Program-made: the position numbers and the translations under genes | Shown here: positions 2,150 through 23,167 of the stretch, one piece after another | Layout of the letters: each line of letters begins with the position of its first letter | Position numbering within the stretch: the first letter of the stretch is position 1 | DNA from: an uncultured Acidobacteriota bacterium | GTDB taxonomy: Bacteria; Acidobacteriota; JAQAZP01 | Direction: 5' to 3' | Length of the DNA: 39,731 nt | Assembly: GCA_963836075.1 (NCBI GenBank) | Contig: CAWIIB010000005.1 | Span: 1-39,731, forward strand | Notes under the pieces: model-generated | Seen by the model: only the letters and a program-made list of their open reading frames with translations | What the model was told of the DNA's origin: nothing | The model's database searches: none

Positions 2150-4099
2150 ATGAAACACGATTCCCCACAGCCATTCTTCCCTCGCTGGGCCCGGATCTGG
2201 GCGCTCACCTGGGCCATGACCAGCGGATTCCTCTCGCTGTTGTGGCTCGTCCTGCGCAGCGGTTTGAAGCCCAGCCGTTTCACCTACCCCTGCCAGCAGG
2301 CGGCCTTCTCGGCGGCCTGGCTCGCCTTTGGCGGTCCGCTGGTGGCGACGATGATCTCTGCACGGCGCCGTCTTTCCGCCGGCCTTCGTACGCCGGTAGG
2401 AGCGACCCTGGCCATTGTCGGCCTGCTGGCCACCGCCGGGATCTGGGGCTACACCTCGTATGCCGAATCGTATGACGGTGTGCCGTTCAGCCCGCCGCGG
2501 GGCTACCGGGCCCAGATCTTCCAGGTCACCGAGTGCCCCCAGGCGCCGGTGGGTGACCGCTTCCTCGGGGTGGAATACCTGCTCAACCTGATGGGCAGCG
2601 AGGGGCTGAAGTTCTACCAGTCAGCCACCCAGTCGCTGATATCAGGGCCCGGCGGGATCGTCGCCGCCGACGATGTGGTGGTGATCAAGATCAATTACCA
2701 GTGGGACGAGCGGGGCGGGACGAACACCGACGTGCTGAGCGGAGTGATCAGGCGCATCGTCGACCATCCCGACGGTTTCACCGGCGAGATCGTGGTCTGC
2801 GAGAACTCGCAGTTCAACTCGATCAACGGGTTCGACAGGGCATACAACAATGCCGAGACCCATTCCCGCTCACCCCACGACGTGGTGGTTTCCTTCCAGG
2901 GGCTGGGGTTCAACGTCTCGCATTTTGACTGGACCGTGACCCGCTACACCTCGGTGGACGAGTTCTCCGATGGCGATTACAGCGACGGCTACGTGGTCTA
3001 TGCCTACAACTCCGGTCTGGGCGGTCGGGTCTCGTACCCAAAGTTCACATCCGATGACGGAACGTATATCAGCCTGCGCGACGGGATCTGGAACGGCAGC
3101 AGCTATGACCGTGGGAAACTGAAGTTCATCAACCTGCCGGTGCTGAAGTCGCACCACGCCACGTACGGCGCCACCGCCTGTGTCAAGCACTACATGGGTG
3201 TGGTGACCGACGGGTTGAGCACCAACTCTCACAGCGCCATCGGCAACGGGATGATGGGGGCCCTGATGGGGGAGATCCAGGCGGCCGACCTGAACATCCT
3301 CGACTGCATCTGGATCCACGCCAATCCCTACGACGGACCGTGGACCGAATACACCGAAGCCACCCGGCGGGACATCCTGCTGGCCTCCACCGATCCGGTG
3401 GCCACCGACATCTGGGCGGTGAAGAACATCCTCATCCCGGCCTTCATCGCCAACGGCTACTCGGCGCCCTGGCCCTATCCCAGCGCCGACCCGGACAACC
3501 CGAGCAGCGAGTTCCGGGAGTACCTCGACAATTCCCTGAGCTACATGCTCAGTGCCGGCATCGTGGCCACCAACGACCTGGGGATGATCGACACCTTCAC
3601 CTGGAGCGGAACTTCGGACAGTGACGGGGACGGCATCCCCGATGGCCCCGACAACTGTCCCGATATTCCGAACCCCAATCAGGAGGATGCGGACCAGAAC
3701 GGTGTGGGCGATGCCTGCGACACCGCTTCCGGAACGGTGGCGGCCTCCATGAGCTGTCTGCCCGACGAGGGGATCCTGCCCTTCACCACCACCATTTCAG
3801 TGGAGATGGCCAACCTGTACAGCGGGCAGTCCCGCCGTCTGGCCGGGAGGATCGACCTCGACCTGGCCAGCGGGCAGCAGTACAGCAGCTGGCGGGCCGG
3901 CTGGAGCAACATCAGCCCCTCCAGCAGCTACTTCACCAGCTGGGGCCAGAGCATCCCCGCCCTGGGCTCGTTGGCCGGTGTGAATACATTCACCCTTCTG
4001 GCCCGGGACGTCACCCCGGCGCCCTACAACCAGCCGCCCTATCCGGCTGCCGGCGACCAGGCCAGCGATGGCTGCACGGTGACGGGCATTCTTCCCTGA
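2150..4099 (+). CDS. Exported or membrane-anchored DUF362-domain protein with a thrombospondin type-3 repeat and an unknown C-terminal domain
   Basis: Intact 649-aa ORF. N-terminal hydrophobic segments with KPSRFTYPCQQAA; DUF362-type motifs VVIKIN, INLPVLKSHH, GATACVKHYMG and DPVATD; TSP3 repeat DSDGDGIPDGPDNCP...DADQNGVGDACD at about 3617-3721. Confidence 0.8.
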   Translation: MKHDSPQPFFPRWARIWALTWAMTSGFLSLLWLVLRSGLKPSRFTYPCQQAAFSAAWLAFGGPLVATMISARRRLSAGLRTPVGATLAIVGLLATAGIWGYTSYAESYDGVPFSPPRGYRAQIFQVTECPQAPVGDRFLGVEYLLNLMGSEGLKFYQSATQSLISGPGGIVAADDVVVIKINYQWDERGGTNTDVLSGVIRRIVDHPDGFTGEIVVCENSQFNSINGFDRAYNNAETHSRSPHDVVVSFQGLGFNVSHFDWTVTRYTSVDEFSDGDYSDGYVVYAYNSGLGGRVSYPKFTSDDGTYISLRDGIWNGSSYDRGKLKFINLPVLKSHHATYGATACVKHYMGVVTDGLSTNSHSAIGNGMMGALMGEIQAADLNILDCIWIHANPYDGPWTEYTEATRRDILLASTDPVATDIWAVKNILIPAFIANGYSAPWPYPSADPDNPSSEFREYLDNSLSYMLSAGIVATNDLGMIDTFTWSGTSDSDGDGIPDGPDNCPDIPNPNQEDADQNGVGDACDTASGTVAASMSCLPDEGILPFTTTISVEMANLYSGQSRRLAGRIDLDLASGQQYSSWRAGWSNISPSSSYFTSWGQSIPALGSLAGVNTFTLLARDVTPAPYNQPPYPAAGDQASDGCTVTGILP

Positions 4100-4107
4100 T
4101 GATTCCA

Positions 4108-5852: not shown

Positions 5853-6000
5853 CCATCCTCACTGAACGGATCCGCTCCAGGTCTCGTATACAGGTACGGT
5901 TGCACGATATCTGGTCCCGATGCACAGCCGGCGGAGGACTGCTCCGCCGGCGGGACGATGAGGTGGCCTGCCGGAGGGGTGCTGACACGGGAGAGAGGAA

Positions 6001-6700
6001 ATGAGCGATAGAGCTGAGAAGACGGATGCGGCAAGGACACCACTGGTCCGGTTCTGGCACTCCTGGGGCAAGATGCTGCTGCATCACCCTGCTGCTGGTC
6101 ACCTCGTTTCGTTCGGCCGTGGCCGACTGGAACGACGTGCCCACCGGTTCGATGAAGCCCACCATCCTCGAGGGCGACCGGATCTTCGTCAACAAGCTGG
6201 CCTACGATCTCAAGATTCCGTTCACCATCCGACGGGTGGCCCGTTGGGGTGAGCCCCGGCGAGGTGAGTTGGTGGTCTTCTTCTCCCCGGTGGACGGCAC
6301 CCGGCTGGTCAAGCGGGTGGTGGGTGTGCCGGGTGACGTGGTCTCCATGCAGGGCCACCGGCTCTCGGTCAACGGCGAGGCGGCGTCCTACAGCCCGGTG
6401 GAGCAGGCCGGCCGGACCGATGGGAGGATTCTCCAATTCACCGAGACCCTGGCCGGTTCGAGCCGCACGGTGCAGTTCATTGCCGACAGGCCCTTGAATC
6501 ACTCCTTCCCCGAAATGACCCTGGCACCGGGGACCTACTTCATGATGGGGGACAATCGCTGCAACAGCGCCGACTCGAGATATTTCGGGGCGGTGGGGAT
6601 GGAACAGATTCTCGGCCGGGTCAGCACCGTGGTGCTTTCGCTGGACCATGAGGCCCACTACCGGCCACGCTGGGACCGGTTTTTCACCGGGATCGACTGA
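6001..6700 (+). CDS. lepB: Signal peptidase I (frameshift near 6075)
   Basis: Ser/Lys dyad boxes PTGSMKPTILEGDRIFVNK, LVKRVVG and GDNRCNSADSRYFG; purine-rich RBS before ATG 6001. Confidence 0.92.
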
Positions 6701-16051: not shown

Positions 16052-16486
16052 CTACACGTCAAAAAGGAGTGTCGCCTCCACCCATTGCCGGTGTCCCGGA
16101 TGCCCGACTGGTGGTAGGTTACCGCCTTGATTTCGCAGCCCGGAGTGTCGGCCCGGCGCATGATGCACTCGGCCCGCAGGCGCTGGCGGTCCAGCTGTTG
16201 AAAGGTGATGGCCTGGGGGACCAGGCCGCGGGTCTCGGCCTGGAAGTGCAGCTCACCCAGCCAGCGCACCAGCAGGTCGTCCGGATCCACGCCCTCCAGA
16301 TCCACATCGATCCGGGCGGCCAGGGTCTGCGCACCGTCCGACGACTCCTCGTCGGGGAACAGGGTCTCGGTCAGGGCCCGGGCCGCCTGCCGAAAGAGAC
16401 TCTCCAGGTCCGGGGCCCAGATACGGAACCGCAGGTCCGCCGGGTGGTCCACGCATTTCGTATCCGGCTTTCGGTATTTCGGTCAC
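16052..16486 (-). CDS. Archease (frameshifts near both ends)
   Basis: DHPADL, LVRWLGEL, EIKAVTYH and a terminal DV-stop; AAGGAG RBS before GTG 16486; directly upstream of rtcB. Confidence 0.88.
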
Positions 16487-16580
16487 GGTGCGGCTCCTTT
16501 GGCCCAAACGGTTCGCAAGCTGGTCATTTGAATAGTATTATTGTATAGGAGAATCCCCAGAGACAAGCGAGGACAAACCC

Positions 16581-19500
16581 CTGGCCGAGAAGACTCCCAG
16601 CAAAAAAGCCGAGAAATCCGGAAAGAAAAAGACGGGCCGGCGTTTTTCCCGTTTCGGCCTGGCCGCCAGACTGACGGCTGGCGTGGCGATTCTCCTTTTC
16701 ATCGTGGTGCTCTACCTGCTCCTCGGCCCTCCGGTGGACCGTGTCGCCACCAGTCTGCTCAGCGGCCTGGTGGAAAAGTATTTTGCCCCGGGTTCGGGGT
16801 TCCAGACCCTGGACCTCGACCTCCGTTCCGGTGAATTGCGGATCACCGGCATCTATCTCGAGGTGCCGCCGGCCCCCGCGGATCCCTCCGTTCCCGGCGG
16901 ACTTTCCGGTCCCTGTACGCTCTCCCTCGAATCGCTCCGTTTCGCCTTCGGCCCTTCGTTTGAACGGTGGACGACCTTCGGGGCCCAGCAACTGGACCTC
17001 GAGGGCCTGGACGTGTTGCTGGACCAGGACTCGCTGATGGCCTTTGTCCACGGCTTGCGCAGGGAGAAGAGACGAGAGCCGCGGGAGATTTCGATCAGCC
17101 TCCCCGGAGTCACTGTCCGCCGGAGCACCTTTCGCTATGGCCGCCGCGAGATCCCGCTGGACCTTGAGGTGGAGGATGTGCGTCTTTCGCTGGCCCCCAC
17201 CGACAGCACAAAGGTGATCGAGGGGGTGCTGCATTGCGGGCCCGGCCGTGGTGGACGCCAACGACTACCTCTTTCCGGTGGATTCCATGGTGGCCTCGCT
17301 GGCCATGGACCTGGGGGGGCTGCGGGTACGCCACCTGGAACTCATCTCACCGGCGGCCGACCTGACGGCCAACGGGGTCATCGGCTTCCGGCGCTACGGC
17401 GAGGTCCCCCGGCGTCTGGCCATCGATGGAGTCTGCCGGCTGGGCCGGATGGGCCGCTTCACCCGGCTGCCTTTCGACCTGGCCGGGATCTCGACGGTGG
17501 ACCTGGAGCTGAACGGCAAATGGGGCGAGCCGGATGATACCGGGCTCTGGACCCTGGCCGGCACGGTGACCGGGCAATACCGCCTGGATCGGGGACCTGC
17601 CGCTGGAGGATTACAACATCCTCGCCGAGGTGGGCAGCGCCGGGCTGACCGTGCACCGTTTCGATACCGGCCTCTTCGAGGGCCGCTGCCGCGGGGCCGG
17701 AAGCCTCACGCCGCTCAATACCCGGGGGGTGCTGGAGGCCACTCTGGAACTGGACAGGCTGGACCTGCCAGCGATCCAGCCCTGGCTCGGCCTGGGGGAG
17801 GAGTGGCCGGCGGGACTGGTCAGCGGCCAGGTGGCCGGGACGGTGCCGGTGCACAGCTGGACCGACCTGGTGGCCGCGGGGGACCTGGAGGTGGATCCCG
17901 GGGTGAGGAAGGATACCCTGCGCCTCATGGGCCCGCCCACCGTGCGCGGCCGGATCTCCTTCCACGCGTTCCAGCGGGACACTCCATCTCCAGGACAGTG
18001 CGTTCACCGTCGGTCAGACTGCCATCCAGCTGACCGGTCCGCTGAGCCTGGAGGGCGGCGACATCCGTCTCAACATCAGGCTGGCCGCCGAAGATCTGCG
18101 GCGAAGCAGGATTACACTGGAGCGGATCCTCGGTCCCCGCTATCCCCGGCACCGGGAAGGGGAGGACAGGGTGCCGCTGGCCATGGCCGGAATCCTTGAA
18201 CTGGATGCCACCCTGGTTCGGGAGGAGGGCAGGCCCTTCCAGTTTCGAGGGCTGGTTGCGGGGTGACAACATGCTGCTGGCCGGTTTCCAGCTGGGACGG
18301 ACCGATGGCCGTTTTCACCTCGACAACGAGCGCTTCGAATTGCGGGACATGGTGCTGGAGGGCGACGGGGTCAACGGCCGGGTGGACTACTTCGGTTGGC
18401 GAAACTGGGCCTGGACAAGGATGCCGCTGCGGGACCGGCCGAAGTGGCGGAAGTGGTGTCGGTGGAGGAAGCGGAGGAAACCCTGACCCTGGTTCTCAAG
18501 GAGCATGACCGGGGGCCCCGGCCGGACAGTCCGAAGGCCCGCTGGGCCCCCTCAACCCGCTGATCGGGCTGCGTTGCGACGTGGTCAACGTGCCCCTGGA
18601 CACGGTGAGCAGTATTCTGCCCATGCCGGCGCTCACCGGGGCTCCGGCGGATGGTGCAACTGGACCTCGACCGGGCCGACCCCTTCTCACCGCTGGCGGG
18701 CTGGGGGGTGGTGGAGAGTGACGGCTGGGACCTGGATCCCTGGTGTTTCGGCTTCACCCGGGCCGGCGTGGGAGTGGACGGGGACGGGGTCCGCTGGCAC
18801 GGTGAGATCAGGGGCAACGGGCGGATGACCATCTCGGGGTGGATCAAGCCCGGGTTCGAGGACGTTCACTTCCGCTGCAGCGGCCGTGCAGTGGAGTTCC
18901 CCGGTGCCTGCACCGTGCTGGTGGACGATGAGACCGGCGAGCCCTATTTCCGGGCTCCGCTCGACTTCACCGGCCAGGGGGCCTGGGAGGAGGACCGGTT
19001 CACGCCTGCGGGCCGGCTTTGACTACCCGTGGCTCGCTTCGGGGAGCAAACCTGCTGGGCCCTGGCCGGGCCAGCCTGGCCATGGACGGTGATATCTGGC
19101 GGTTGGAGCTGGAGCCGGAAACCGGGAGCGGTCTTATCCGGGGACTGCTGTTTGCCGACGGTCGAAGCTGGCCGCTCTGGCTGGCCGGCGAGCTCTCCTC
19201 GCTCCGCGTGCGGCAGTGCGAGGAGGACACCCTCGTGCCACGGCCCATCCCCGGCCAATGGGCCGAGTCACCGGTGGCCGGCCTGGCTGCGCGGGCCGGG
19301 GGCATTCGCCGAGCGGATGGTTCTCGGTGGACTGGTGGAGCAGTGCCTGGTCAGCACCTCGGAGAACTACCGTCTGGAGAGCCGTGGTGCCTTCCCCATC
19401 CTGATGGACCAGGGCGTGCGCAGCCTCAAACTGCCCCGGGCCAGCTTCCTCGGGCCGGCCGGGTCACAGATCAGCGCCGGCGGCCGGTCTGGCCTTCGAG

Positions 19501-20900
19501 GGCGCCGAACCGCCCACCGATATGCTGCTCCTCGGGTCTTTCGACCTCGATGGTCTCGGCTTCTCCCGGGAGGCGTTCCAGCTCAGCGGATCGGGGCTGG
19601 CCGAGTTGCGCATCGGCGGATACTATCCGTTGCTGACCCAGACCGGCCGGGTGGACCTGACCCAGGGCAAGCTGACCCTGCCCGAGATTCACTTCGCCTG
19701 CACCGGCATCGAGGCGGCCATCGCCCTCGAGCCGGACCGTCTGGACCTGCTGGATTTTGCCGGACGGATCGGTGGCGGGCCGGTGAGCGGCAGCGGCACC
19801 CTCCGTTTTGGCGAGGATTACGCCGCTGAGTCGTTCCGTTTCGAGGCCCGCGGCAGGGACATGGTTCTGGCATACCCGGAGAAGGTGAGCACCCTCTTTG
19901 ACGCCGACCTGGTGCTGGAGGGGGACCGGCAGAGTCACACCCTCACCGGCCGTGGCCTGATTCGCCGCACCGTTTACAGCGGGTCGGTCTTCGCTGAGGA
20001 GGAGGAAGCCGTTCCGGCGGCGGACCCGGGGGCAGCAGCGGATGTTGAGGACGACTGGTTGGGGCGGACGACTCTCGACCTGACGCTGGAGGCACCGGAC
20101 AATCTTTTCATCCGCAGCGAGGAGGGCACGGTGCAATTCACCGGCAGCCTCGAGGTGGGCCAGACATTTGCCGATCCACGGATTGCCGGCACGGTCACCT
20201 CGGTGCCCGGCGGGCGGTTCCTCTTCCGCGACATCGAGTACGACGTGGAGGAGGCGCGGGTCGATTTCGTCGATCCCACGGGTGTGCAGCCGGTGCTCTA
20301 CCTCAAGGCCTCCACCACCAGTGGATACCTACCTGATCACCCTGGTGGCGGACGGTCCCTTCGACGACCTGTCCTTCGAGGTCACTTCGGTGCCCCGGCT
20401 CAACGACCGGGATATCATTTCGCTGCTGGCCTTTGGCCGGCTCAGCTCCGAGCTGCCCGGCATCGAGGGGGCGACTCTGGCCGGTCAGGAGGTGACCTCC
20501 TACTTCACCGGCGGTTTCACCGGTGAGCTGCAGTCACGGCTCAAGGAGACCTTCGGCCTGACCCGTTTCGAGATTCAGCCGATGTTCCTCGAGGGCACCA
20601 CCGATCCCACGGCCCGTATCACCGTGGGCAAGGACCTCTCCGACGACCTCTTCTTCACCTACTCCACCAGCCTCACCTCCATCGAAGATACGCTGCTGCT
20701 GCTGCGCTACCGCATCGACGAGCGGTTGGCCGTCCTGGCCTCCCGGGAAGAGGACGGCTCCTACGGCGGTGATATCCAGTACCGTACCTCCATGAGTTTT
20801 GCCCAGGGCAAGGACAAGAGTCTCTGGGACAGTCTCCTGGGCCGGCCGGACGACTGGCGGTCCGCCGACGGAGAAGACGTAGGCCTGGCCGACGGCGTGT
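16581..20900 (+). CDS. TamB/AsmA-like (DUF490) region; N-terminal part of a probable TamB-Omp85 fusion (many frameshifts)
   Basis: Basic N-terminus plus single TM (VAILLFIVVLYLLL), then a long beta-rich G/L/D sequence. DUF490-like end: LDLTLEAPDNLFIRS, P.IAGTV, FVDPTGVQPVLYLKA, SVPRLNDRDIISLLAFG, ARITVGKDLSDDLFFTYS. Start uncertain (CTG 16581 after GAGGA, or GTG 16683). Confidence 0.8.
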
Positions 20901-23167
20901 CCCCAGCCGCTGGTGGGGACGATCCGTTTCGCCGACCCGGACCATCTTCCAAGGCAGGAAGGGACACTGGCCGGGAAATTGAAGATACGGACCGGGGAGA
21001 CCATGGATGCCAAACGGCTGGTGGATGACCAGGAACGGCTGACTTCCTATCTGATCAAGAAGGGCTTCCTGCGGTGCCGGGTGTCGGTGGACCGCCTGCC
21101 GCGGAAAGTGGGGGAGGGCGACCGTCCGGTAACCGACCTGGCTCTGGACCGTGACCGCCGGGCCGCGCTTCAAGGTGGATTACCGAGGCGGGCGTGTCCC
21201 CATGGGGCTCAAGGGCAAGATCCGCAAGCTCTGGTCCGGAGAGGCTTTTTTCGACGACAACCTGCGCCGGGCCAGGGAGATGCTGATCGGCCACTTCCGG
21301 AACAGGGGATTTCCCGACGTGGAGGTGTCGGTGGAACAACTGGCGCCCACGGATGACGGAGAGCCGACGGAGCTGGTTTTTGTCATGGACAAGGGGCCCG
21401 CGGCCCGTATCGGCGAGATCGAGGTCATGGGCAACCAGGCGCTCACCGCTCAACGGGTGACCGGCCTCCTGGAGGGTCAGCCGGACCAGGCCCAGCTGAA
21501 GATCCGGGGTCCTCTACGTGGAGGAACAGGTGGAGCAGGCCCTGGCCCGTGTACGTTCGGTGTACCGGGCCAAGGGATACAACGATGTCCGGCTGGATCA
21601 TCTCACCGGATCGCCGGCGTCAGGATCCTCCGGCGGCGGGGAGAAGACGGTTCCCCTGCGGATCACCATCACCGAGAGCGTGCGCGACGTGGTGCACCGG
21701 GTTCGGTTTGCCGGACTCAATGGCATCAACGAGATCGATGTCCGCAACCGCTTTCTCTACCGTGAGGGTGAGCCCTATGATGCCTCCCGCCGCAAGGCGG
21801 CCAAGGATGACCTGGTGCGTTACATCGACCAGGAGGGGTTCGTGGACGCCCGTTTGAAGATCGAGGTCAGCAAGCAGGAACCCGGTGATGACGGCGCGGT
21901 GCCCCACCTGATCACGGTGAGCGTGGAGGAGGGCCGGCGGCACCTGGTGGACCACTGGCGCTTCGCCGGCAATGTGCTCACGGACAACCGGGTCATCCGC
22001 CAGGAGATGGTGGTCCGGCCCGGAGAGCCGCTGAGCCGCTTCGGCATGCTGCAGAGCCAGCGCAATCTCTACCGCACCGGACTCTTCGACCAGGTGGTGA
22101 TCCGCCACGAGCCGCTGCCCGGTCCGCTGGACGGGCCCCTCCGGGTCCGCCTGGTGGTGGAGATGGAGGAACGGGACAATCTCCAGCTCACCGGCGGTGC
22201 GGGATACGACACAGAGGAGCTTCTGCGGGGATACCTGCAGTTCAACAACCTCAACTTCATGGGCGCCCGCCGGATCCTCGGCCTGCAGCTCAGGGGGTCC
22301 AGCAAACGCCAGCGGCTGCAGGTCACCGGCACGGAAACCCGCTTTCTCAACCGCAGCGACATGGAGGCCACGGTGGTGGCCTTTGCCGCCCAGGAAGTGG
22401 AGGAGAGTTATGACATCTCCCGGCTCAGCGCCTCCTTCCAGGTGGACTGGGATTACTCACCGCACTGGCGTTTCCTCTACGGCTACAATTTCGAGGCCAA
22501 CCGGCTGGACGAGGTGCGGGTGCTGGAGGACGTGGTGGAGAACCGTGAGGAAACATATCGAATTTCCCGGCTCAGACTGTCACCGATCTATGATGCCCGG
22601 CGACGATATCTTCAACCCCACCCGCGGGCTGTTCATGAGCGGTGAACTGGGAACAGCGCTCAAGGCACTGGGTTCGGAGGTGCAGTTCCTGCGCTCGCTG
22701 TTCAGCGGCAGTTACCACAAGCCGCTCTTTCAGCCGCACGGTCTGGTACTCCTCAGTGCGGCTTGGTCTGATGGGCTGGCCGGGGTCCAAGCAGTATATC
22801 CCGCTGTCCGAGCGGTTTTATGCCGGCGGTTCCAGCACCGTGCGCGGGTTCCCCTTCGACCGGCTGGGGCCGCTGGACCCCAAGATCCGGTCTGCCCCTG
22901 GGCGGCGAGGGGCTGGTCATCCTGAACCAGGAACTGCGTTTCCCGCTCTACGGTGATCTGGGGGCCACGGTCTTCGTCGACGTGGGAAACGTGTTCCCCA
23001 GGGTCAGTGACATGTTCAAGGACTTCGATCTGCGCAGCACCGCCGGGGTGGGTTTGCGGTACCGCACACCGGTGGGGCCGGTGCGCATGGAGTATGGCTG
23101 GATCCTGGGCCGCCAGGAGGGGGAAGGGGCAGGCGAGTTCTATCTCAGCATCGGCAATGCGTTCTAA
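20901..23167 (+). CDS. Omp85 (BamA/TamA-family) region with about 5 POTRA domains and a beta-barrel; C-terminal part of the probable fusion
   Basis: POTRA motifs (YLIKKGF, HFRNRGFPDVEV, YRAKGYNDV, FAGNVLTDNRVIRQEM, SQRNLYRTGLF); barrel ERFYAGGSSTVRGF, GVGLRYRTPVGPVRMEYG and terminal SIGNAF. No signal peptide of its own. Confidence 0.88.

Follow-up and report, generated by a model that had tools for sequence, protein, structure and literature searches.

The 39,731-nucleotide stretch analysed here (hereafter the window) is the whole of contig C5 (positions 1-39731, 39.7 kb) of an uncultured Acidobacteriota bacterium, and at 16581-23167 on its forward strand it carries the parts of one large gene, in which TamB (PF04357), five POTRA repeats and an Omp85 barrel follow one another, split across frames. 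An earlier note on this DNA had proposed that these parts form a single chain that could span the whole cell envelope. We show that such a TamB-Omp85 fusion is real and widely conserved in Acidobacteriota, and that, as judged from sequence comparison, the frameshifts that interrupt the window copy behave as assembly errors.

No single frame covers the gene: on the forward strand between 16.5 and 23.2 kb the longest open frame has 375 codons, and stop-to-stop stretches do not exceed 381 codons. At its 5' end stand a candidate ribosome-binding site (GAGGAC, 16569-16574) and a candidate CTG start at 16581 (together 16569-16583, forward strand), both conserved in four orthologues and taken as the putative start on that ground. 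In translation there follows a hydrophobic helix (FGLAARLTAGVAILLFIVVLYLLLG, 16653-16727), a 25-residue stretch after a Lys/Arg-rich beginning, which is presumed to be an inner-membrane signal anchor and has an equivalent in the orthologue on C9, the main contig of the same genome. The TamB body (16728-19761), a predicted periplasm-spanning beta-taco broken by frameshifts, gave no Pfam match in its window pieces and was traced by tblastn of the intact C9 protein through successive frames. The TamB C-terminal domain (DUF490, PF04357; 19762-20800) ends with the strand ...DIQYRTSMSF and has profile matches at C5:19762-20322 and 20318-20788; Pfam recognises it in two window frames, at 19405-20523 (E 2.5e-15, profile positions 5-209) and 20084-21025 (E 2.3e-18, positions 217-379), with 57.1 and 67.1 bits against a cut-off of 22.4. 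A polar linker that contains the junction frameshift (20801-20911, delimited by comparison with C9 and the same-genus genomes G001 and G002) leads to five POTRA repeats (20912-22252), which lie in three frames of the window and whose limits, drawn from PF07244, a structural model and tblastn mapping, are approximate to a few codons; the Pfam POTRA matches are at 20883-21353 and 21500-22642. The 16-stranded Omp85 barrel (PF01103; 22253-23167) has Pfam matches at 22101-22922 and 22772-23164. The earlier note had described a VRGF-containing barrel ending in Phe, and this is what the barrel holds: STVRGFPFD within it, and SIGNAF followed by a stop at 23167.

The argument for one chain turns on the junction between TamB and POTRA1. 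After ...DGSYGGDIQYRTSMSF, the window's TamB frame stays open past the DUF490 strand through the polar linker AQGKDKSLWDSLLGRPDDWRSADGEDVGLADGVSP, and POTRA sequence (PQPLVGTIRFADPDHLP...) continues in the next frame, just as had been described from the letters alone. The TAG at 20880-20882 that closes the Omp85 frame upstream, the GTG at 20913 that is its only start, and the lack of a signal peptide behind that start are also borne out in the window, as is the CTG at 16581. Compared with the three intact orthologues (C9, G001 and G002), the window has one extra base in GTGTCCCCAGCC, at about 20897-20903, which corresponds to the single indel that had been expected near 20900. The three orthologues read here in one frame as ...DGSYG.D.QYRT.MSFAQGK.K.LWDSL.GR...DG....P.VG.I.FA.P..LP..., and the window matches G001 in one frame 5' of the extra base and in the next frame 3' of it (...PLVGTIRFADPDHLP...). 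In these three closest homologues the DUF490 strand is not followed by a stop, nor is POTRA1 preceded by a signal peptide. The aromatic-ended strand of TamB (...SMSF) is kept but is internal, followed by linker and POTRA1, and the free C-terminal strand of an ordinary TamB is missing. If the extra base is taken literally, TamB would continue for 76 codons that encode unrelated sequence, and no usable start would remain for the Omp85 frame. A programmed frameshift at the junction was also considered and ruled out, because the three closest orthologues are in frame there.

Searching relatives with the junction-bearing frame gave uninterrupted frames of 2,189 codons in the same genome (C9:2267510-2274079), 2,199 codons in G001 and 2,190 codons in G002, with 85%, 86% and 80% identity to the window, respectively, across the end of TamB. 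Each of them continues in frame across the junction, in accordance with the single polypeptide of about 2,200 residues that had been proposed, so that the closest homologues are not two-gene arrangements. The C9 protein (P0001, 2,181 residues from a GTG) has Pfam matches to TamB at 1054-1397, to five POTRA stretches and to Omp85 at 1879-2181, and PF04357 scores 130.4 bits on it over profile positions 3-379; the five stretches, together with five units in the structural model described below, agree with the earlier count of about five POTRAs. P0001 reaches 298.8 bits with the BamA equivalog model TIGR03303 (cut-off 297.15), which covers profile positions 90-741 in the fused Omp85 parts. It stays far below the TamA model NF047950 (96.9 bits, cut-off 625), with five POTRAs where TamA has three, and below the TamL model (70.6, cut-off 400).

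The same genome holds a second paralogue, P0002 (2,176 residues, about 25-31% identical), with the same architecture, a BamA model score of 366.6 bits and weak Pfam matches to DUF748, YhdP and the AsmA N-terminal family. A separate canonical bamA, whose presence the earlier note had left to be checked, is there too: its product has 800 residues and scores 488.3 bits with TIGR03303 over profile positions 3-741. Unlike this stand-alone BamA, the fused Omp85 part has no start or signal peptide of its own before POTRA1. All four PF04357 matches of the genome sit in fusions and the profile search found no stand-alone TamB in it, and the two TamB matches in each of G001 and G002 likewise belong to fusions. 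Therefore, in this genus translocation and assembly module (TAM) function would rest on fused proteins.

The interruptions of the window copy were placed by a MAFFT pair alignment with the C9 gene, which has 26 gaps, of which 22 are not multiples of three; among the 15 single-base gaps, 14 are an extra base in the window. The frame-breaking sites, spread over 17241-22885 of the forward strand, are 17241, 17564-17577, 17975, 18241, 18403-18440, 18532, 18653, 19004, 19045, 19268, 19276, 19489, 20320, 20897, 21142, 21503, 22601, 22728 and 22885. Other genes of C5 also switch frame relative to intact C9 counterparts (one gene of 656 codons, at 88% identity, does so four times), and the impression that indels run throughout the contig is thereby upheld. 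The whole window is collinear with C9:2,242,184-2,289,958 at 76-87% identity, and is therefore a second, diverged version of that region; from this comparison, C5 is probably a co-binned contig of a low-coverage sister organism (bin contamination 4.61%). Independent evidence comes from contigs of three public sediment metagenome runs, which are 95-99% alike to the window, short (151-334 bases) and shallow (depth 2-6), the runs containing 5-15% of the sampled words. The window's extra bases are missing from these contigs at 17572, 17975, 18524 (two bases), 18654, 20319, 21501 and 22885, that is, at seven of the seven indel sites reported, each within 8 bases of a frame-breaking gap relative to C9. 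Over 346 codons of the cleanly aligned DUF490 part, the ratio of non-synonymous to synonymous substitutions (dN/dS) against C9 is 0.18; values outside this part (0.31-0.43) were not used, because the long tblastn pieces contain out-of-frame stretches. Indel counts from blastn at 80% identity, which were inflated by alignment noise and had no homopolymer bias, were dropped, and the MAFFT alignment and the metagenome contigs were used instead.

At the 5' end, the CTG at 16581 with its preceding GAGGA(C/T) is the sole start-like codon kept in all four orthologues compared. A GTG further 5' of it is found in the C9 copy alone, and there is no ATG, GTG or TTG ahead of the membrane helix in the window or in G001. 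Across four orthologues, whose similarity is otherwise about 80% (regions compared: window 16476-16583, L013 2451-2558, L025 and L026), the roughly 45 bases 5' of the gene (AAACGGTTCGCAAGCTGGTCATTTGAATAGTATTATTGTA...) hardly differ, which, taken with the CTG, points to a leader or promoter under conservation and to a start of non-canonical type.

To see how far the fusion extends, 151 Acidobacteriota genomes, including the unpublished G025 and G048, were scanned with the Pfam TamB model, which matched in 133 of them; G025 and G048 enter this tally and no other result. From the out-of-genus matches listed, all those whose open frame reached 1,855 codons or more were fetched, together with one of 1,761 codons, giving 40 frames from 36 genomes, and in 36 of these 40 long TamB-bearing frames PF04357 and PF01103 occur together. 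Among the other four, two carry TamB only (L032 and L071) and two carry TamB and POTRA without the barrel (L047 in G143 and L054 in G140); in the last two, assembly errors or contig ends have probably interrupted a fusion, and the TamB domain of L054 is nearly identical to that of the fused L057. When L079 (G041) and the three same-genus genomes are included, the fusion is present in at least 35 of the 151 genomes, under 22 family labels. One of the 36, an apparent fusion of 2,363 codons in a single-contig genome (L056; G111:C1:481200-494300, reverse strand, about 5980-6180), was rejected as an artefact and is not counted, which leaves 35 of these frames: the true TamB tail, ...DFKLKQRF*, lies in another frame, with a frame change just before it, and a signal peptide is still present on the Omp85 part. 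The length of an open frame can thus be misleading on its own.

Single proteins with both families, which the earlier note had suggested looking for, are present in large numbers in sequence collections. In an index of 5.8 billion proteins, 19 of 26 matches carry all three Pfam families (1,814-2,395 residues); these come from NCBI, ENA, JGI and Logan and, where the source gives a name, are called YaeT or BamA/TamA, so that the TamB half is hidden in annotation. Of the best 150 matches in a library of clusters at 50% identity, 145 span the junction in one stretch and 112 are at least 1,900 residues long, with a terminal Phe in 106 of the 112. Five ESM Atlas clusters (67, 72, 198, 53 and 58 members) also combine the three families, Acidobacteriota being the commonest phylum recorded, and relatives within the phylum include Candidatus Polarisedimenticolia and Sulfotelmatobacter. 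The architecture varies in length. Four fusions under one family label (L036, L044, L048 and L058, from G069, G082, G055 and G040) have 2,403-2,441 codons, with the end of TamB lying about 600 residues from the barrel, which leaves room for about seven POTRAs and recalls the seven-POTRA second BamA reported for Acidobacteria (PMC4494059). Two short fusions (L069 and L070, from G044 and G029) have 1,855-1,871 codons and about 120 residues in that interval, roughly one POTRA.

Twenty shorter TamB loci, picked for family spread and not at random, show the unfused arrangement: one proved to be fused, and in the other 19 an Omp85 gene adjoins tamB, downstream in 14 and upstream in 5. In the 14 loci with a downstream Omp85 gene, TamB ends with an aromatic residue and a stop (...WEQRY*, ...RVRHTF*, ...RKRF*), and the Omp85 gene encodes an N-terminus resembling a signal peptide, with scores of 1.5-2.9 for its most hydrophobic 12-residue window; at 8 of these 14 loci an ATG overlaps the tamB stop by one base. 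In the 42 fused frames the same aromatic-ended strand is in frame, the TamB model being matched to within 8 positions of its end, and is followed by a linker rich in Gly, Pro and charged residues (median about 20 residues, range 13-51) and then by POTRA1. The most hydrophobic 12-residue window of these linkers does not exceed 1.59, with a median of -0.48 over all 43 frames including L056. The linker thus occupies the site of the stop, start codon and signal peptide of split relatives, and from this comparison the fusion looks like the loss of a stop in a coupled gene pair, with a spacer in place of the signal peptide. A stop and a separate signal peptide, which the earlier note had named as the finding that would speak for two genes, are features of split relatives in other lineages and not of this gene's own clade. 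On an unrooted maximum-likelihood tree built on TamB's C-terminal domain (66 rows: 42 fused, 20 split and 4 unlabelled), 4 changes between the two states are needed, at least 3 of them forced by well-supported branches, and none of 200 bootstrap trees allows a single change; since the tree is unrooted, gains and losses are indistinguishable.

An AlphaFold2 model of the last 1,182 residues of P0001 (mean predicted local distance difference test score, pLDDT, 78.1; predicted template modelling score 0.64) shows, in order, strands of the taco, two helices, six strands at the C-terminal end of TamB, a linker of low confidence (404-432), five POTRA units of beta-alpha-alpha-beta-beta type and the barrel. 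Structure comparison matches it best with full-length chains of E. coli BamA (E 1.9e-46), TamA appearing at rank 50. When the TamB C-terminal domain (250-403) and the POTRA-barrel part (433-1182) were submitted as two chains, the predicted complex had an interface score (ipSAE) of 0.65 against 0.01 for the best of three controls, the runs sharing at least 53% of contacts and the partner having a pLDDT of 47-50; in the tool's calibration, 116 of 157 solved complexes and 2 of 215 mismatched pairs attained this mark. In the predicted pairing, residues 391-399 run antiparallel to 857-865, the first barrel strand, with other contacts along the lumen. This geometry is that of the E. coli TamAB hybrid barrel, and the score may therefore reflect solved structures. 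A strand that pairs antiparallel with barrel strand 1 has its end on the periplasmic side, and the linker can continue from there.

As a whole, the observations are best explained by a one-chain TamB-POTRA-Omp85 protein of about 2,190 residues that covalently bridges both membranes, a reading to which we assign a probability of roughly 85%. In the mechanism we propose, the N-terminal helix would anchor the chain in the inner membrane while the remainder is exported, and the canonical beta-barrel assembly machinery (BAM) would insert the C-terminal barrel through its terminal beta-signal, a task for which the 800-residue canonical BamA could serve. Next, the last DUF490 strands would dock in the barrel of the same chain, where pairing of TamB's final strand with barrel strand 1 would give a hybrid barrel in cis, as in E. 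coli TamAB, and the chain would re-enter the periplasm via the linker to POTRA1. The two membranes would thereby be permanently joined by a covalent bridge; phospholipids would travel to the outer membrane along the groove of this bridge, which may also assist in barrel-protein assembly. For the more specific proposition that the bridge is permanent and uncut, that it evolved on three or more occasions from tamB-omp85 pairs coupled in translation, and that in some genera it stands entirely in place of the two-protein TAM, we see even odds.

Several points weigh against this reading. No independent contig crosses 20880-20902, the nearest record starting at 20902, so that the join in the window's own organism rests on homology. 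The window has no ATG, GTG or TTG start ahead of the membrane helix, and either the conserved CTG must serve or the start is damaged as well. The BamA score of P0001 is barely above its cut-off (298.8 against 297.15). The complex prediction may echo the solved TamAB structures, and the fold of the partner is uncertain, with a pLDDT below 50 in at least one run. Linkers as short as 13-20 residues must bridge the gap between the hybrid strand's periplasmic end and POTRA1 in an arm of five POTRAs. Lastly, the chain is known here from genes alone, which applies to its production, its uncut state and its role in lipid transport.

Among the other explanations, it could be that the fused precursor is real and a periplasmic protease cuts the linker, the working form being a two-chain TamB and Omp85 and the fusion serving co-export and a 1:1 stoichiometry. 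The linker is polar, poorly conserved and predicted to be disordered, as is typical of processing sites, and the interchange of fused and split states on the tree makes the two forms seem functionally equivalent; however, no conserved cleavage motif was seen in 42 linkers, and those of 13-20 residues beside a membrane-embedded strand would be poorly accessible to a protease, which makes processing unlikely in our view. It is very unlikely that the copy in the window has genuinely decayed into a pseudogene, as a second version of the C9 gene whose frameshifts are biological. Its 22 frame-breaking gaps, its divergence from the collinear C9 segment, which marks it as a distinct copy, and its missing canonical start would fit decay, but the contigs without the extra bases at seven of seven sites, the spread of frameshifts over many genes along the contig and the dN/dS of 0.18 where frames are clean do not, and collinearity at about 80% identity over some 40 kb agrees better with a co-binned sister organism than with a duplication.

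We regard it as extremely improbable that TamB and Omp85 are two genes in the window's organism, with the extra base at about 20897 real and Omp85 starting on its own. Split tamB-then-omp85 pairs do exist in the phylum (14 of the 20 shorter loci), and the junction base is outside the coverage of the independent contigs. Nevertheless, a real extra base would give TamB the 76 out-of-frame codons and leave Omp85 with GTG 20913 as its only start upstream of POTRA1 and hence with no signal peptide; moreover, each of the three nearest orthologues is a fusion, with a linker to which the window's own is homologous both before and after the shift. We give practically no credence to the idea that the long fused frames of relatives are themselves artefacts of assembly or gene calling, for example chance read-through between neighbours. 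L056 shows that this can happen, but it is the sole case of 43, while the other 42 are in frame to within 8 positions of the TamB model end, have short linkers with no hydrophobic segment, and come from many assemblies and four data sources.

The neighbours of the C9 fusion are a gene for an RtcB-family RNA ligase on the opposite strand (L013 571-2001, reverse strand) and a gene for a protein with weak RNase Z-like matches (L013 9096-10025, forward strand); among the flanking genes of L013, no further envelope-biogenesis gene adjoins the fusion. Elsewhere in the window, 26260-27030 matches several hundred places on C1, C9, C2 and C8 at 66-77% identity and is therefore part of a very large paralogous gene family in the genome, and a smaller gene family matches 3734-4100.

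Repeated covalent fusion bears on how TamB-type bridges pass lipids or proteins to the outer membrane and on whether the hybrid barrel is stable or transient: it argues that constant association of TamB with Omp85 is compatible with function. If the permanent bridge is true, TamB never needs to leave its Omp85 partner to work, a constitutive hybrid barrel would be favoured over cycling models, and BAM would be capable of inserting a barrel that remains linked to the inner membrane by about 1,400 residues. This is a biogenesis problem in itself, as the barrel would be folded into the outer membrane while its own N-terminus sits in the inner membrane. For structural biology, the fusion would offer a ready single-chain complex with a fixed 1:1 stoichiometry.

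Full-text literature searches found no description of a natural TamB-Omp85 fusion, and the terms "TamB fusion", "TamA-TamB fusion" and "TamB-TamA fusion" are absent from the literature retrieved. We consider the fusion a variant of the known TamB-Omp85 system that stands in databases under uninformative names and is undescribed in print as far as searched. Passages of a 2026 preprint give length classes of bacterial DUF490 proteins only up to 1,650-1,700 residues, and surveys of TamB length may miss the fused class.

In E. coli, tamA lies upstream of tamB, unlike the domain order found here, which is TamB and then Omp85. The present protein also differs from E. coli TAM in that it is one polypeptide with an internal TamB C-terminus, and its Omp85 part has no signal peptide, has five POTRAs and scores as BamA (298.8 bits) and not as TamA. 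What the two share is a TamB with DUF490 and an inner-membrane anchor, which is presumed for the present protein, a TamB strand with an aromatic end, a barrel with a VRGF motif and a terminal Phe and, in our prediction, the strand-1 pairing: cryo-electron microscopy of E. coli TamAB is reported to show the last TamB strand paired with strand 1 of the Omp85 barrel (PMC12800296; preprint 10.64898/2026.03.22.713439).

Within the same phylum, Heinz et al. (2015; PMC4494059) reported a second, TamA-like BamA of Acidobacteria in an operon with TamB, that is, a duplicated BamA-like Omp85, with extra POTRAs in some copies, beside the canonical BamA, as found here. The genes there are separate, BamA and then TamB, whereas here there is one reading frame, and the words "fusion" and "fused" do not occur in the main text of that article; split acidobacterial forms akin to those reported were seen here in 19 of the 20 shorter loci. 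Bacteroidota, too, are reported to have a lineage-specific outer-membrane partner of TamB, TamL (PMC12045153), which is a separate lipoprotein and whose model the fused protein does not reach (70.6 against 400). In Borrelia burgdorferi, TamB is described with a five-POTRA Omp85 of BamA type and not with a three-POTRA TamA (PMC5582053, PMC11361582, PMC13382580), which is the same combination as in the fusion. The Borrelia proteins are separate and the partner is the cell's only, canonical BamA, while here a dedicated second Omp85 is covalently joined to TamB and the canonical BamA is encoded elsewhere in the genome.

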